A stretch of DNA of 64,000 nt from Candidatus Krakonobacterium acarorum (GCA_050311575.1 JBNOKO010000001.1:1219099-1283098), one strand, 5' to 3'. Shown: positions 11,873 to 19,181, numbered from the stretch's first letter. Numbers and translations are program-made. Notes: generated by a model not told the origin, from the sequence alone.

Positions 11873-11988
11873 GTTGTCCTTTTGAGTTATTAAATAAATT
11901 AGGTTATATTAAGCATTAAGATAAGGCAGTAAAAACATAAATTGATATGTATCAAGTTACTATTACTTTCTCGAATTAATTGAATATT

Positions 11989-13035
11989 TTACTTACAAGT
12001 ATTTCTTAGCTCGTCGTGGTCATCAATTTTGGGATAAACTATGTTTATTCTCCTTACATCTTCTGCCGATAATTCAGTATTTTCATAGATCCATGGGTCG
12101 CCAAATTTACTAGTTATTGCAGGCGTCACTAATGAAGCTAATAAGTTTCTAATCCAAGGATCTGAACTAAAAGAAGGTGTCATCATTATAGAATATCTAT
12201 CAAATTTGGGATCGTCTTTAATTACTCTCTGCGCTTGCAATGAAAACTTTAAGTTATTTGCAACTTTCTGTGTTGCAAATTGTATTAATGAATCTATGGC
12301 ATTTTGATGTATATTTATATATTGAGAGCTTTTAGGTCTTACGTTTTCATCAACATATCCTAATACATGCCCAAGCTGATGTACTATATCTGTAATCCCA
12401 CAATTATCAGTAAAATAAACTAATCCTTGATTATTAGGGCGTGCTCCAATAGTAGCAGCACAAAGTTTACCGTGATATTGACCGGCGTAGTATTTTATAA
12501 CCGTAGCTCCATCCGGAACCTTTTGGCCGTCTTTAACCGTTATCACGTGAAACTCAAGGTTCGGGTTAGCCTTTTTCCACACAGCTATCCCGTTTAGTAT
12601 AGCGTCTTCTAAACCATAAGACATATCGCTAATATTTAGGGCTAAAAATACCATATTGCACTGCCAGGTATTGGCTCCGGCAAATATGCATACAGGGTCA
12701 GTTTTTGGATTCCTGGTTTGTTTATTAACATCTATTTTAAATTCATTATGCTTATGCAACCTCGATAATTCTTCTATTTCAATAGAATCTTCATGTTTAA
12801 CGTTAGAGTATTTTTTAATAATTTTTACATCGTTCGTATTTATTAAATTGTGGCCATTATATAGCAGGAAATCTTTATCGTTTGCCAACTCTTTGAATAC
12901 CCTAACGTCTCCATTGTTTTTGTCTATTCCCAATGTATAATCTGCAGACTCATTTTCTATAATATTATTAGAAGATTTACTACAGGCTGATGTAAATATT
13001 ACTAGTGCTATAAATGCGAGCTTATTTATTTTCAT
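11989..13035 (-). CDS. Astacin-like (M12A) lipoprotein, predicted catalytically inactive (type B, copy 3)
   Basis: Lipobox FTSAC; degenerate zinc motif HQLGHVLGYVDENVRP (E to Q, third His to D); Met-turn-like SIMM; C-terminal LSAEDVRRIN. Confidence 0.8.
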   Translation of the reverse strand: MKINKLAFIALVIFTSACSKSSNNIIENESADYTLGIDKNNGDVRVFKELANDKDFLLYNGHNLINTNDVKIIKKYSNVKHEDSIEIEELSRLHKHNEFKIDVNKQTRNPKTDPVCIFAGANTWQCNMVFLALNISDMSYGLEDAILNGIAVWKKANPNLEFHVITVKDGQKVPDGATVIKYYAGQYHGKLCAATIGARPNNQGLVYFTDNCGITDIVHQLGHVLGYVDENVRPKSSQYINIHQNAIDSLIQFATQKVANNLKFSLQAQRVIKDDPKFDRYSIMMTPSFSSDPWIRNLLASLVTPAITSKFGDPWIYENTELSAEDVRRINIVYPKIDDHDELRNTCK

Positions 13036-13112
13036 GGATTTTATTTTTGTATGTTTATAAATTAGTCTAGGTTGTTATATTAGTTATTAATCTCAACACA
13101 GGTAGGTTATGG

Positions 13113-14273
13113 CTACAAGTGTTCGTTTACGGTATATCTATCAGTTGTAAGAGGGTATACTGTGTTCACTTTTTTTATATCCAAGTCAGATATCATTTTA
13201 TCCGGATCTGTAATTTCCGGATCTTGACACAACTCGTTTGAGTCCTTAGTGAGGAAAACCGGAGCATTATACCGCATTAATATTTCTCTTGCCTCGAGAG
13301 GGTAATATGAAGGATACATCGTGATAGATTTATGATCAAAAGGCGCCAGAGTAGTGTTATCACTGTATACATCATATTTTTGAATATATGAAGGTATCAT
13401 CATTTGATAATAATCTCCGGTTGGATCTGCAGTACCTGCAAGATTGTTAAAATCTAATACACTACTGTCCTGATTGTAGAATCCGGGTAATACCTCCATC
13501 AAAGCAGTTCTCTGAAATGTAATATAATTATCGCGTGATGGTCTCTGGTGCTCATGTATAAAACCAAAAGTATGAGCGAATTCGTGCACCACAGCTGATA
13601 ATTCCATGTGTTCAGATAACACGATCGCTCCCGGTATTCCTAACTCAGTTCCCACGGTCGCGTAGGCAACCTGGTCCGGGCTAAATCTGTATAGGTGTAC
13701 CGCTACTTTATAGGTACTGTCGCCTTTTATGTTTGCCTCTTCATAAGTTATAAACTCAAACCCTATATTAGTTTTTTCTCTCCATAATTCTATAGCTTTA
13801 TAAACTCTGTTTAATAAAGGGGCGGGCATATAGTTATCTATACCTATTCTAACAATACGGTCAGGCCATATACTGACTCCTTTCATTACACATACAAGAC
13901 TATCATTACTATATGAAGCCGGTAAAATATATTTATTAGTTTCATGTTCATTTATCAGTTTTGCCAGTTCGGTTTTATCTATTGGCTCGTTTTGCTTATA
14001 TATTTTTATCGGCTCTACCTGGCTTTTATGTATTAGAATATCGCCGCCTTTGGATAAAAAATCATGCGTTATATTTCTGTATAAATTTATTTCTCCATTG
14101 GTTTTATTAATACCTAATATAATATTGGTTCCTGTACTGCTTTGCTTCGAACTTGTTTCTGATTGTTTATTGATTATAAGGTCTTTTTTGCAAGATGATT
14201 GTGTAAGAAATACGAGCCCTAGCAGAAATACTATAAGTGCTGAGGTGTAAGAGAGATTTTTCGATAGTTTCAT
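13113..14273 (-). CDS. Astacin-family (M12A) zinc metalloprotease lipoprotein (type A, copy 3)
   Basis: Lipobox QSSC; HEFAHTFGFIHEHQRPSRDNY astacin signature; Met-turn SITMY. Confidence 0.9.
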   Translation of the reverse strand: MKLSKNLSYTSALIVFLLGLVFLTQSSCKKDLIINKQSETSSKQSSTGTNIILGINKTNGEINLYRNITHDFLSKGGDILIHKSQVEPIKIYKQNEPIDKTELAKLINEHETNKYILPASYSNDSLVCVMKGVSIWPDRIVRIGIDNYMPAPLLNRVYKAIELWREKTNIGFEFITYEEANIKGDSTYKVAVHLYRFSPDQVAYATVGTELGIPGAIVLSEHMELSAVVHEFAHTFGFIHEHQRPSRDNYITFQRTALMEVLPGFYNQDSSVLDFNNLAGTADPTGDYYQMMIPSYIQKYDVYSDNTTLAPFDHKSITMYPSYYPLEAREILMRYNAPVFLTKDSNELCQDPEITDPDKMISDLDIKKVNTVYPLTTDRYTVNEHL

Positions 14274-14279
14274 AAAAAT

Positions 14280-14481
14280 TTATATGGTTTTGTGTTTTTC
14301 CTTGTTTGTTATAATTTCTAGTTTTTGATGCATGGTTTCAATTTTTTCGTTGATTTCTATCAATATATCATAGTGCTTGTTCTTCATACGTTTTTAGTAA
14401 ATAGGTAATGATACTTGATACGTCTATAGAGTTATTATCGTTTTCTGTTTGTCCGGCAGATGCAAAATTTAGTAAATGCTT
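14280..14481 (-). pseudogene. Remnant of the C-terminus of protein X (copy 3)
   Basis: Translates KHLLNFASAGQTENDNNSIDVSSIITYLLKTYEEQAL* then, after a frameshift, IEINEKIETMHQKLEIITNKE; matches the end of 17470-18399. Confidence 0.85.
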
Positions 14482-17449: not shown

Positions 17450-17469
17450 AAAAAAATTTATATGTTTTA

Positions 17470-18399
17470 TTATTCCTTGTTTATTAAAACATCGAGTTTT
17501 TGCTGGATACTTTCAACTTTTTTGTTCATTTCTATAATATATAGAGCTTGTTCCTCAACCGTTTTTAATAAAGAGGTGATAATATTTGATACGCTCATCG
17601 AGTTATTATCGTTTTCTATTTGTTTTGCAGATGGAAAATTTGGTAAATGTTTATTTGTATTAACAAATTTTTCTAAACTATGTAAGCTTGCAAGAGTATA
17701 ATTTTTGTCAAAAACATAGTCTGGCCATTTGTCTAAATTGCTTATTTGAAGGTTAGTAGCCTTAATTGCACCTTTTACTAATAATTTAAATTTTTCAGAA
17801 TCTTTACCTGTGATTTTGCTGGGATCAACTCCCAGACCAATCTTGCCATTAGTGTCAATAGCCATAGCAAGGCTGCCATTTGCCCAAAAGTTTAGTCCGT
17901 TTTGTGGTCCATAGGAACCATTATTGCTACTGGCAATACCGGTTGTTGACTCTGAATAGGACGAGCCTCCAAAAAAGATACCTCCATTGCTATAGCCATC
18001 AGAAAGATTATCGGGGTCGATGTGTAGGCGAGCAATCTTAGCAGGTTCGCCAGTCGCTTCTAATGCGCCTTTCACAGTTAGACTTTTATTCATTTGAACC
18101 GCACCATTGTTATCTATAAACATTCTTAGTTGGTAATTGGTGATAAAATTTAACCCGTAAGATGGTCCGTATTTAGGATTTGGAGGCCCACTTGTTATTT
18201 TTTCTCCTGTTCCAACTGTTTCACCAAAATATAAGGAGTTCCCATTAAGACCATCGTTACTGCGATAAACCAGAAACCAGCCAGAATCATTTCTAGGTTG
18301 GATTGCTGAAGGAGTGTTAGTGTTGAGATTTTGAGCCTGTATATTAGAAGTTAGCACTAATAGTAAAGACAATATTTGTAGCGATATAATTTTTCTCAT
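17470..18399 (-). CDS. Secreted protein X: tail-fibre-like repeats plus C-terminal WPDYVF coiled-coil (S74-chaperone-like) domain
   Basis: Sec signal MRKIISLQ..IQA; two repeats (YGPSYGLNF..MFIDNNG / YGPQNGLNF..MAIDTNG); LLVKGAIKA..WPDYVFDKNY..HLPNFPSA..LLKTVEEQALYII coiled coil. Confidence 0.8.
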   Translation of the reverse strand: MRKIISLQILSLLLVLTSNIQAQNLNTNTPSAIQPRNDSGWFLVYRSNDGLNGNSLYFGETVGTGEKITSGPPNPKYGPSYGLNFITNYQLRMFIDNNGAVQMNKSLTVKGALEATGEPAKIARLHIDPDNLSDGYSNGGIFFGGSSYSESTTGIASSNNGSYGPQNGLNFWANGSLAMAIDTNGKIGLGVDPSKITGKDSEKFKLLVKGAIKATNLQISNLDKWPDYVFDKNYTLASLHSLEKFVNTNKHLPNFPSAKQIENDNNSMSVSNIITSLLKTVEEQALYIIEMNKKVESIQQKLDVLINKE

Positions 18400-18590
18400 G
18401 TTAATAGGTTGATTTTGTGTATGCAAAGTTGCTTTATATGTTATATATAAATTTATTGTGTAATTATTGTCTAATATATAGATATTTTATATATAAAGTA
18501 TTATCTATAAAGAAATTTTTTATTTATTTTATTGTTACATTGTTATGTTATTATAGTTAAAACTAAATATTAATGGAGTAGGGGTATCTG

Positions 18591-18630
18591 GCCTTTTAAC
18601 GATAATTTTTCTAAATTATCGTTAAAAGGC
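18591..18630. terminator. 18-bp-stem hairpin between 16S and the inserted cassette
   Basis: gccttttaacgataattt-ttct-aaattatcgttaaaaggc. Confidence 0.55.
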
Positions 18631-19181
18631 TATTGGATCAATATTTATCTAAGAGTAGATTATTTAGTCGCATGCTAATATATAATGCAATCCAACATAT
18701 GAGTTTACATATTTTAAATGGATAGCATTTATATGCTAAGTATTAATATGGGTAGGATATAAAATTGAGATAGAAGAATTTTTGATTGGTAATTAAAGAT
18801 AATATGATAGAAAGATAACATTATAATTAAATATTGAATTTGGCATATATCAATATGATCCTAAGTTGTAGTAATAATGTTACCTATAATAAAATTCGTA
18901 GATCAGGATAAATTTACTTTATAGGATTAATTATAATATCTGAGGTATGGAGTTATGAATTAGATATAAGATGTGGAGAGATTGAAAATTTTATCTATTT
19001 ATGGAAATAGAATCCATATTGATAAGGATATATAATTATTATCTAGAGGATGGTAACTTTAATAGATTTATTATAATAGAATAATTAAGAAAAAATAGAG
19101 ATAATGTTTATTATCAGGGAAAGGTGTATAAATATTCAAAAACAAATAAGGAACAATAGAACATAGAGCCAGATACTCTAA

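Follow-up and report, generated by a model that had tools for sequence, protein, structure and literature searches.

The window analysed here, a stretch of 64,000 nucleotides from Candidatus Krakonobacterium acarorum, a member of the Bacteroidota with a 1.31-Mb genome of 31.8% GC, holds an rRNA operon (rrnA) in which Rfam and ARAGORN place the 16S, tRNA-Ile, tRNA-Ala, 23S and 5S genes in that order, all on the minus strand:

19182-20709, minus strand, 16S rRNA gene (Rfam RF00177, 1529.8 bits, full length)
11798-11872, minus strand, tRNA-Ile(gat) (ARAGORN)
11697-11771, minus strand, tRNA-Ala(tgc) (ARAGORN)
8146-11044, minus strand, 23S rRNA gene (Rfam)
7984-8096, minus strand, 5S rRNA gene (Rfam)

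This is also the order given for the canonical operon, as in E. coli, in the available portions of PMC5179076 and PMC11404451. Gene order and orientation, the identity of the spacer tRNAs, the flanking leader-trailer helices and a terminator after the 5S gene are all shared with that operon; what differs is the spacer since, instead of a few hundred non-coding base pairs, this genome has 3.0-7.3 kb of protein-coding genes separating tRNA-Ile from the 16S trailer. The first-pass annotation of this DNA had described about 7.3 kb between the 16S 3' end and tRNA-Ile in an otherwise canonical order, which we confirm, the interval (11873-19181) measuring 7,309 bp. Its statement that this spacer normally spans a few hundred bp also agrees with our comparison of 130 16S-23S pairs of the same class, where spacers range from 124 to 928 bp and among which the operons of this genome are outliers.

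The gap is filled by five intact ORFs (X, A1, B1, A2 and B2), co-oriented with the rRNA genes and interspersed with two remnants:

17470-18426, minus strand, X, secreted fibre-like or adhesin-like protein, 318 aa as listed (ORF call)
17056-17301, minus strand, pseudogene remnant of a type-B astacin C-terminus with 2 in-frame stops (52% identity to B2 residues 264-348)
15724-16869, minus strand, A1, astacin-family lipoprotein, 381 aa, intact HELGHxxGxxHEHQRPSRD (PF01400, 51.8 bits against a cutoff of 22.5)
14582-15619, minus strand, B1, astacin-like lipoprotein, 345 aa, catalytically degenerate, HNIGH...GYVDENVRP (PF01400, 41.3 bits)
14298-14481, minus strand, pseudogene remnant of an X C-terminus with one stop and a frameshift (67% identity to X residues 259-303)
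13113-14273, minus strand, A2, astacin-family lipoprotein, 386 aa, intact motif, tandem duplicate of A1 with 56% aa identity (PF01400)
11989-13035, minus strand, B2, degenerate astacin-like lipoprotein, 348 aa, HQLGH...GYVDENVRP, tandem duplicate of B1 with 60% aa identity (PF01400)

Five intact, co-oriented genes for secreted proteins had been called before, and in fact a hydrophobic signal-like N-terminal segment is present in 5/5 products, read by eye rather than with a signal-peptide predictor, as was the lipobox-like Cys seen in all four astacins. The earlier count of three pseudogene remnants does not stand, as only the two loci above were found and the frameshifted X remnant might have been counted twice. 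Protein X, whose likely start is the ATG at 18402, matches no family in Pfam, NCBIfam or PHROG; the Atlas groups it with the Bacteroidota 'tail fiber domain-containing' and 'cell wall anchor' clusters (score 0.97), and its C-terminal ~150 aa are present in 21 of the 41 genomes searched, its own genome counted.

The four island astacins all pass the PF01400 cutoff (40.8-51.8 bits against 22.5), a profile that has nine matches genome-wide and whose PDB matches include BMP-1 (E 1e-16), astacin and myroilysin. Relatives of solved structure in the M12A family are BMP-1, tolloid-like 1, astacin, the meprins and bacterial myroilysin; the cassette proteins differ from the family in their lipoprotein signal and in a conserved N-terminal domain of ~100 aa that is almost confined to this lineage. 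The astacin signature consists of the zinc-binding, catalytic motif HExxHxxGxxHExxRxDR and a Met-turn. In A1 and A2 the motif is intact (HELGH/HEFAH...HEHQRPSRD, with a SIM/SIT turn), and HExxHxxGxxHEHQRPxR with a SIM-type Met-turn is kept by A1, A2, the astacin of the second rRNA operon and one cluster-3 astacin. B1 and B2 depart from it (HNIGH/HQLGH...GYVDENVRP), and because the catalytic Glu and the third His are lost in both, as well as in a 357-aa cluster-3 protein, these three paralogues are probably inactive pseudo-proteases. An identity with LegP, the Legionella Dot/Icm effector metalloprotease (NF045530), was rejected on scores of 61.2 and 43.7 bits against an equivalog cutoff of 300; the similarity is one of shared astacin fold only. 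A role of the cassette in host or surface interaction is likely.

A second split copy, newly reported here, lies elsewhere in the genome. This operon, rrnB, has the same layout (16S, a paralogue of X, an astacin, tRNA-Ile) with a gap of 3,035 bp, so that the 16S-tRNA-Ile spacer holds five intact genes in rrnA and two in rrnB. Ribosomal RNA repeats of 3-4 kb are classic misassembly sites, and a collapse or mis-joining of such repeats could in principle yield an arrangement of this kind, the support available here coming from contigs. The architecture, however, is the same at both copies; the closed genome is free of N and nowhere has a canonical spacer from 16S to tRNA-Ile, both 16S copies running into the same spacer and X, and the two tRNA-Ile genes are preceded by different astacin genes. 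In addition, overlapping contigs from two DNA runs of separate studies (runs X3 and X4) tile 11853-19400, and record 19 of run X3 (1,749 nt) joins the 16S 3' end, the spacer and X. Contig depth is about 2x over the parts common to rrnA and rrnB, and at 11882 the graph of contigs branches off to rrnB, exactly as expected for two loci. A direct join of 16S to tRNA-Ile, named by the first-pass annotation as the mark of an artefact, was found in no contig of this organism in the runs examined, and the 16S-X junction is supported by both runs. Run X4 has one loose end, at 19182; the depth of about 21,774 at this point indicates that it stems from the 16S genes of other organisms. Of the sampled words of the island, roughly half or more are present in 16 runs from 13 studies. 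Because the two separate-study runs tile the island and join 16S to X, misassembly is very unlikely indeed, and the layout is real at both loci.

By the definition in the available text of Brewer et al. (10.1101/705046), rRNA genes are unlinked when 16S and 23S lie over 1,500 bp apart; with distances of 8,137 bp (rrnA) and 3,863 bp (rrnB), both operons belong to this known kind. As far as the accessible parts of that study and of Ahn et al. 2020 (PMC7761764) go, unlinked rRNA genes are common in AT-rich reduced symbiont genomes, and the present genome shares their profile of being AT-rich and small with few rrn copies. In the same portion of 10.1101/705046, however, 682 of 778 unlinked pairs are more than 6 kb apart and the mean distance is 410 kb; unlike most such pairs, the operons described here keep order, strand, spacer tRNAs and both processing helices; moreover, the same gene family fills both gaps, and a second promoter element is found in one copy only. 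The rRNA locus of Borrelia, according to the section of PMC4370689 available, likewise has a long, variable spacer between 16S and 23S-5S, the spacer tRNAs having stayed close by, in a small host-associated genome. There, however, tRNA-Ile is encoded on the other strand, 23S-5S forms a tandem duplication and 16S may be duplicated or degenerate, whereas here all genes are co-oriented and a lineage-specific cassette of secreted-protein genes lies in between.

The comparison of the two copies speaks to the age of the cassette. Their 16S genes are 100% identical, and the operons are identical over 7900-11882 (100%) and nearly so over 17816-20885 (99%). The 5' ~425 nt of X match the rrnB paralogue exactly, and the 106 differences within 17623-20885 are all located below position 18000, inside the coding region of X. 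Homogenisation between the copies has acted on a single unit made up of the promoter and gene of 16S, the 755-nt spacer and the 5' portion of X. The 3' part of X, in turn, gives a dS of about 2 and a dN/dS of 0.21; the corresponding values are 0.94 and 0.34 for A1/A2, and 0.79 and 0.39 for B1/B2. By these estimates (dS about 0.8-2) the cassette is old and under purifying selection. In rrnA it grew by tandem duplication to X, A1, B1, A2, B2 and the two remnants, while rrnB has one X and one astacin.

That a mobile or horizontally transferred island entered the rrn spacer only recently might be suspected from the nearly orphan status of the family, with 14 matches among ~5.8 billion proteins of which only 3 cover at least 72% of the query, and from the placement of X-astacin modules directly downstream of co-oriented stable-RNA genes at 3/3 loci (16S_A, 16S_B and tRNA-Leu), which is reminiscent of integration next to RNA genes. 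No integrase or transposase family was found by Pfam among the 6 ORFs scanned, however, and self-BLAST of the island gave nothing beyond two palindromes and the tandem duplication within it, terminal or flanking repeats being absent; on both points the first-pass annotation was right, and we rejected the assignment to mobile genomic islands. Island GC, mostly 0.28-0.40, is near the genome-wide 0.318, the cassette sits in both rrn copies, astacins of different loci are only 23-32% identical, and the internal duplications carry a dS of about 0.8-0.9 with a dN/dS of 0.34-0.39. Because GC, presence in both copies, divergence and substitution rates all argue for a long residence, we consider a recent arrival improbable, and regard the cassette as old, duplicated and conserved.

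Between and around the genes, the following elements bear on how the operon might be transcribed and processed:

20822-20853, minus strand, rrn promoter-like element P1, TTTGGAAAAA-N12-TAAACTTG, 113 nt upstream of 16S
19082-19177, minus strand, 16S trailer, 3' half of the leader-trailer processing helix (duplex folding)
18427-19181, minus strand, AT-rich non-coding 16S-X spacer, 755 nt, 100% identical in rrnA and rrnB
18591-18630, minus strand, strong 18-bp stem-loop lacking a U-tail, which may be a processing site or a non-canonical terminator
16975-17006, no strand assigned, perfect 32-bp palindrome with a 14-bp stem and a U-run after it on the plus strand only (-20.2 kcal/mol, z = -5.5)
12102-12132, minus strand, weak candidate internal promoter, perfect -7 box TAAATTTG with a poor -33, inside B2 and ~230 nt upstream of tRNA-Ile
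7697-7718, minus strand, canonical intrinsic terminator, hairpin and U-run, 3' of 5S

The first ~100 nt of the gap still belong to 16S as its trailer and form a helix with its leader (-49.5 kcal/mol against -35.2 +/- 4.8 for shuffles, 1/200 as good), and the 23S leader-trailer helix is intact as well (-35.9 against -15.4 +/- 2.6, 0/200 as good). The stem-loop at 18591-18630 reaches -24.8 kcal/mol in a folded stretch of 91 nt (z = -8.2, 0/200 shuffles as good). On the transcribed strand, the terminator after 5S is the only canonical one in the 7000-22000 interval scanned; none precedes tRNA-Ile, and both strong island hairpins are devoid of a U-tail on that strand.

As for promoters, P1, whose 34-nt form ending in CA spans 20820-20853, is identical before both 16S genes and matches the Bacteroidota promoter type, -33 TTTG / -7 TAnnTTTG. 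The element TTTGGAAAAA-N12-TAAACTTGCA occurs exactly three times in the genome, before 16S_A, 16S_B and the tRNA-Ile of rrnB, and similarity among these copies is limited to a ~38-nt core. The third occurrence (P2), about 194-196 nt upstream of tRNA-Ile, is a putative second rrn promoter, while the rrnA island has no match to the element even when 2 + 2 substitutions are allowed. Because TAnnYTTG lies 16-65 nt upstream of 12/27 tRNA/tmRNA units, where its density would predict about 5%, the -7 box is, on this enrichment, really in use in this genome. The box is absent from all island intergenic regions, the transcribed strand of the 16S-X spacer included. Genome-wide, TAnnTTTG precedes 176/924 crude genes against 139 for the reverse-complement control, and a de novo k-mer analysis for promoter motifs gave nothing strong; because promoter prediction is of such low power in this AT-rich genome, little weight can be put on the missing box before the five island genes. 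Either of two sites could be a real promoter: CAACTTTG, a box with one mismatch that lies 30 nt before the ATG of X, and the TAAATTTG box ahead of the rrnA tRNA-Ile.

The first-pass annotation had proposed either that the cassette is expressed by read-through from the rRNA promoter or that the locus is an intermediate in rrn unlinking, and our results bear on both. Co-orientation, the single terminator located after 5S and the lack of a box between 16S and X agree with read-through. Mismatch-free contigs from RNA libraries are found for X, A2 and B2, with the start of X spanned as well (18244-18444), and one lies in the non-coding spacer (18773-19018). These Logan contigs are unstranded, have a depth of about 2, cover 6 and 9 of 30 bins and may include DNA carry-over; none of them bridges 16S to X or B2 to tRNA-Ile. 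Read-through expression of the cassette is plausible. The unlinking proposal gains support because rrnB has a second promoter element before tRNA-Ile and rrnA none.

The units might instead be fully uncoupled. The 16S transcript would then end or be cut in the spacer, for instance at 18591-18630, X and the astacins would use non-canonical promoters of their own, and tRNA-Ile-23S-5S would be transcribed independently in each operon, from P2 in rrnB and from the TAAATTTG box within B2 in rrnA; gene order would be a historical trace, and the locus an ordinary short-distance unlinked case. The second promoter element of rrnB is consistent with this, as are the position of the TAAATTTG box, near the 196-nt distance of P2, the CAACTTTG box before X, and the very stable hairpin between 16S and X, which could end 16S transcripts even with no U-tail; most protein genes here do without a perfect box anyway. 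Separate transcription of 16S and 23S-5S is known, as cited in the available part of PMC7761764, in Wolbachia, Buchnera and Helicobacter with unlinked genes. The TAAATTTG box, however, is at chance level (1.11 boxes per kb per strand) and has no TTTG at -33, and the island hairpins with no U-tail, together with the want of a canonical terminator before tRNA-Ile, argue against this reading. Because identity between rrnA and rrnB upstream of tRNA-Ile starts at 11882, only 10 nt before the gene, no promoter is common to the two. Two 16S promoters with one recognisable 23S promoter would, moreover, be expected to unbalance rRNA stoichiometry unless read-through occurs. Full uncoupling is therefore, in our view, a possible but somewhat doubtful account.

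With moderate confidence, we favour colinear split operons with a lineage-specific cassette between the 16S trailer and tRNA-Ile, served by read-through and, in rrnB, by P2. Transcription would start at the 16S promoter and traverse the cassette; processing at the leader-trailer helix would release 16S, X and the astacins would be translated from the RNA downstream of it, and the polymerase would proceed into tRNA-Ile, tRNA-Ala, 23S and 5S. In rrnB a newly fixed P2 might top up or replace the supply by read-through, which would bring this operon functionally nearer to an unlinked pair, while rrnA would depend mostly on read-through or on weak unrecognised promoters. Read in this manner, the locus would represent unlinked rRNA genes in a form that is colinear and partly uncoupled, and these split operons may capture the break-up of an rRNA operon at an intermediate stage. 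As a minor observation on the X family, paralogue X3, which lies outside the rrn operons, carries TTG...TATTTTTG 40 nt before its start.

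The rRNA operon in the window, which we call rrnA, keeps its rRNA and tRNA genes in canonical order on the minus strand (Rfam, ARAGORN), and is interrupted between the 16S and tRNA-Ile by 7,309 bp (11873-19181), in agreement with the gap of about 7.3 kb that the first-pass annotation had reported. Five intact minus-strand open reading frames lie in this gap, as had also been claimed, and from the 16S side we call them X, A1, B1, A2 and B2, and together the island or cassette. The three pseudogene remnants of the earlier count, on the other hand, are two in ours.

Features of rrnA and of the island (window coordinates; rRNA and tRNA genes from Rfam/ARAGORN)
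7984-8096, minus strand: 5S
8146-11044, minus strand: 23S
11697-11771, minus strand: tRNA-Ala(tgc)
11798-11872, minus strand: tRNA-Ile(gat)
11989-13035, minus strand: B2, intact open reading frame
13113-14273, minus strand: A2, intact open reading frame
14298-14481: remnant of the X C-terminus, with one stop and one frameshift
14582-15619, minus strand: B1, intact open reading frame
15724-16869, minus strand: A1, intact open reading frame
17056-17301: remnant of a type-B astacin C-terminus, with two stops
17470-18426, minus strand: X, intact open reading frame
19182-20709, minus strand: 16S

That no integrase, transposase or terminal repeat accompanies these genes was borne out, as 0 of 6 open reading frames matched such families and self-comparison returned an internal duplication and two palindromes only. 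The host contig is closed (1,312,108 bp, without N, 31.8% GC, completeness score 100%) and carries two rrn copies, along with 36 tRNA/tmRNA genes. In the second operon, rrnB, the gap from 16S to tRNA-Ile measures 3,035 bp and holds a 313-aa X paralogue followed by a 356-aa astacin-like lipoprotein, both co-oriented.

A collapsed repeat, in which the 16S would in truth be joined directly to tRNA-Ile, had been named as the artefact that could produce this layout. The canonical 16S-to-tRNA-Ile spacer sequence is absent throughout the closed assembly; the 16S of both copies leads into the same spacer and X, and different astacin genes lie upstream of the two tRNA-Ile genes. At least about half of the island's sampled words are present in 16 public runs from 13 studies, and examination at contig level covered two DNA runs from different studies (X3 and X4) and two RNA runs (X17 and X18). 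In both DNA runs, overlapping contigs tile 11853-19400, contig depth is roughly twofold across the operon-shared parts, and the contig arriving from the tRNA-Ala/tRNA-Ile side forks at 11882, its loose end being the path of the other operon. Record 19 of DNA run X3 (1,749 nt) extends from within the 16S across the 755-nt spacer (18427-19181) into X, and record 27 of DNA run X4, which includes 40 nt of 16S, also joins 16S, spacer and X. The 348-nt contig over 11853-12200 reaches just 30 nt into the shared repeat and by the 31-letter rule counts as an overlap, not as a strict bridge. With the 16S-X join reproduced in two DNA runs, misassembly is very unlikely and hardly a serious contender, and the split layout is confirmed for both operons. 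DNA run X3 also contains a minor joint between contigs, from 16900 to 14521 (depth 3.2 vs about 9), suggesting a sub-population without the A1-B1 module; this would fit recombination between tandem duplicates.

The first-pass annotation's premise that this spacer normally measures a few hundred bp is in keeping with our class survey, in which the 3' end of the 16S and the 5' end of the 23S served as queries against 300 same-class genomes, with no closer ones included. The survey gave 130 co-oriented 16S-23S pairs on a single contig, in 116 genomes, with spacers of 124-928 bp (median 471) and none above 1,500 bp; the two spacers of this genome are 8,137 and 3,863 bp. These 130 pairs exclude 16 of the 146 16S matches outside this genome, for which the contig offered no co-oriented 23S (a contig end intervened, or only two candidates were scored per genome) and which could hide other unlinked cases. 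Over the last 419 nt of the 16S, the best match among the 300 genomes is 88% identical. The tRNA-Ala-23S spacer (11045-11696) is, at 652 nt, long on its own, given that the same-class median is for the whole 16S-23S spacer. Brewer et al. (10.1101/705046) define as unlinked a spacer above 1,500 bp, with 98.7% of pairs falling below it, and describe unlinked pairs as mostly far apart (682 of 778 beyond 6 kb, mean 410 kb), while Ahn et al. (PMC7761764) connect unlinked operons with symbiont genomes that are reduced and AT-rich and have few rrn copies. The locus is a member of this known class, as an uncommon colinear variant. The rRNA locus of Borrelia is a documented analogue, although its geometry is unlike that of this genome (PMC4370689). 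The arrangement is not described in the literature we found; the per-genome rrn tables of 10.1101/705046 and PMC7761764, which lie outside that scope, may list this genome or similar Bacteroidota.

Comparison of the two operons is informative on how the cassette relates to the rRNA repeat. Identity between them is 100% at 7900-11882, a stretch that begins downstream of the 5S and ends 10 nt beyond the 5' end of tRNA-Ile, and 99% at 17816-20885. All 106 differences within the block 17623-20885 fall in the X coding sequence, below coordinate 18000, which leaves the promoter region, the 16S, the whole 755-nt spacer and ~425 nt at the start of X free of any difference between the operons. The spacer and the start of X therefore both evolve in concert with the rRNA repeat, as if belonging to it. 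The divergent 3' part of X, in turn, shows a dS of about 2 and a dN/dS of 0.21 between rrnA and rrnB. Inside the island, a 2.4-kb tandem duplication (11985-14358 vs 14578-16954) is 69.8% identical, and remnants of one further module are also found. A1 and A2 share 56% of their amino acids (dS 0.94, dN/dS 0.34), and B1 and B2 share 60% (dS 0.79, dN/dS 0.39); astacins of different loci are only 23-32% identical, and island GC is mostly 0.28-0.40 vs 0.318 for the genome. Taken together, these values make a recent insertion unlikely and indicate that the cassette is an old resident under purifying selection.

A third X-astacin group, which we call cluster 3 (G000:C1:1214945-1218781 of this genome, locus L039), lies a short way beyond the left edge of the window, some 8.5 kb downstream of the rrnA 5S. 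It contains a third copy of X (248 aa), a degenerate 357-aa astacin, an intact 363-aa astacin and a 129-aa fragment, with the X copy preceding the astacin matches (G000:1214945-1218048), and sits directly downstream of a co-oriented tRNA-Leu(gag) (window 254-340). All three clusters, in fact, are directly downstream of a co-oriented stable-RNA gene, the 16S twice and tRNA-Leu(gag) once.

X has no Pfam, NCBIfam or PHROG family. In the protein Atlas, it groups with Bacteroidota clusters auto-named "tail fiber domain-containing" and "cell wall anchor" (score 0.97, structural TM 0.65), and a search of 41 genomes found its C-terminal ~150 residues in 21 of them, its own included; the genome collection has them in 21 Bacteroidota loci. 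A1, B1, A2 and B2 match Pfam Astacin (40.8-51.8 bits, cutoff 22.5) and share a lipoprotein-like signal with an invariant Cys, as well as a conserved N-terminal domain; against solved structures, the family profile matched BMP-1, tolloid-like 1, astacin, meprins and the bacterial myroilysin. A1 and A2 retain HExxHxxGxxHEHQRPSRD. The corresponding motif of B1 and B2 is HNIGH/HQLGH...GYVDENVRP, and because the catalytic Glu and the third zinc-binding His are lost, these two are probably inactive. Astacin matches number nine genome-wide: four fall in rrnA, one in rrnB and three in cluster 3, and the ninth is a fragment elsewhere. Among about 5.8 billion proteins there were 14 matches, only three of which cover at least 72% of the query, so that the island astacin family is nearly an orphan at that scale; PHROGs gave no match for A1 or B1. 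Two of the three long matches (98% and 57% identity) are, by their sequences, a strain variant of A1 and essentially A2 itself. The third match, P0003 (31% identity), is 41% identical to a cluster-3 astacin, which indicates that it comes from another, related organism. No rRNA, tRNA or astacin gene flanked the X-like C-terminal domain in 32 loci (L006-L037, flanks at hand), and no rRNA or X-like gene stood beside astacin-like domains in 43 metagenome loci (L040-L082), all of which matched the catalytic domain only. Within the collections searched, which yielded no close relative of readable gene context, both the X-astacin pairing and its embedding in rrn thus appear lineage-specific. In both copies, the 16S trailer and tRNA-Ile are separated by a cassette that is old, under selection and specific to this lineage, and that encodes a secreted fibre-like protein and astacin-type lipoproteins.

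Upstream of the 16S, at 20820-20853, lies the element TTTGGAAAAA-N12-TAAACTTGCA, which fits the -33/-7 promoter type of Bacteroidota. The genome has exactly three copies of the complete element, one ahead of each 16S and one 194 nt ahead of the rrnB tRNA-Ile. The rrnA island has none, even with two substitutions allowed per box, and a predicted second rrn-type promoter is accordingly present in one operon only, rrnB. The site ahead of the rrnB tRNA-Ile resembles that of the 16S over a ~38-nt core only, a pattern suggestive of conserved function as a promoter rather than of recent segmental copying. The -7 box alone, TAnnYTTG, has a genome density of 1.11 per kb per strand; of 27 tRNA/tmRNA transcription units, 12 have it at a distance of 16-65 nt upstream, placements by which we judge this box type to be really used in the genome. 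On the transcribed strand of the rrnA island there are four such boxes vs about eight expected, all within genes, and none in the 755-nt spacer or any island intergenic stretch.

The best explanation, for which we see an even chance, is partial coupling of the 16S with tRNA-Ile-23S-5S: transcription from the 16S promoter would run through the cassette into tRNA-Ile-23S-5S, and rrnB would be further towards independence than rrnA. Its main rival, full functional uncoupling through promoters and terminators not recognised here, we consider possible though somewhat doubtful. Bearing on it is that most protein genes are without a perfect box (176 of 924 have one vs 139 for the control), that the X ATG is preceded, at 30 nt, by a box with one mismatch, and that a perfect TAAATTTG box lies inside B2, about 230 nt upstream of the rrnA tRNA-Ile. 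A canonical two-box promoter is present 40 nt ahead of the start of the third copy of X, which belongs to no rrn operon. A sigma-70-type promoter scan showed no excess (50 vs 55.6 +/- 6.8 in shuffles), and a de novo oriented k-mer search upstream of 495 genes gave no strong motif. Island matches of a relaxed two-box scan were set aside as uninformative, being at background (1.09 per kb per strand), as was a BoxA-like motif common to the 16S leader, the leader after the promoter copy before the rrnB tRNA-Ile, the pre-23S spacer and the spacers upstream of X, which amounted to short AT-rich k-mers only.

As for terminators, the scan showed no excess (11 vs 10.0 +/- 3.0 in shuffles), and from it we used only the individual terminator after the 5S (7697-7718), the sole hairpin with a U-run on the transcribed strand within the 7000-22000 region scanned. 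Two very stable hairpins on that strand, 18591-18630 (z = -8.2) and 16975-17006 (z = -5.5), are without a U-tail. They may serve in RNA processing, protect mRNA ends or act as terminators of a non-canonical kind; apart from the rrnB copy of 18591-18630, neither recurs elsewhere in the genome. The 16S leader and the first ~100 nt after the 16S form a strong leader-trailer helix (-49.5 vs -35.2 +/- 4.8; 1 of 200 shuffles as good), as do the 23S flanks (-35.9 vs -15.4 +/- 2.6; 0 of 200). Zero-mismatch contigs from two RNA-Seq libraries map to B2, A2 and X, to 18244-18444, which includes the X start, and to 18773-19018 in the non-coding spacer. These contigs, at a depth of about 2, strand-blind and open to DNA carry-over, give a weak hint that the 755-nt spacer is transcribed, and we did not take uncovered island parts in runs X17 and X18 as silence.

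Partial coupling could be carried further, to a reading that we hold to be rather unlikely, namely that rrnA is a single ~13-kb hybrid transcription unit and rrnB the next evolutionary step, the two copies representing successive stages of unlinking by insertion and not by rearrangement. If so, one transcript started at the rRNA promoter would carry the 16S first, messages for the secreted fibre protein and for four astacin-type lipoproteins next, and tRNA-Ile, tRNA-Ala, 23S and 5S last. Production of host-interaction proteins would be tied firmly to ribosome synthesis, 23S output would depend on transcription across 7.3 kb of translated genes, and the newly fixed second rrn promoter of rrnB would release 23S-5S from that dependence.

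Unlinked rRNA genes are widespread, and it is poorly understood how an operon under strong selection for co-transcription breaks up, and how the 16S:23S ratio stays balanced in the process. Here the comparison comes within one genome, as two colinear operons carry the same old cassette and a second rrn promoter is recognisable before tRNA-Ile in only one; transcript mapping could therefore test whether unlinking passes through a read-through stage followed by promoter gain. The locus also bears on whether protein genes embedded in a bacterial pre-rRNA transcript can be expressed, on rRNA antitermination and processing, and on what drives surface protease genes in a reduced host-associated bacterium. 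From a practical standpoint, 16S-ITS-23S long-amplicon typing of this lineage would fail or give 8-kb and 4-kb products.

A few minor observations can be added. A host-associated lifestyle is suggested by island-identical sequence in a run whose label reads "mite metagenome". Shine-Dalgarno motifs are almost unused in the genome, yet the 16S 3' end retains CCTCC. At 11867-11882, the 10 nt upstream of tRNA-Ile common to rrnA and rrnB, AAAGGACAAC, pair with the first tRNA-Ile bases into a small hairpin, AGGAC-AACA-GTCCT, that may be relevant to tRNA-Ile 5' processing.
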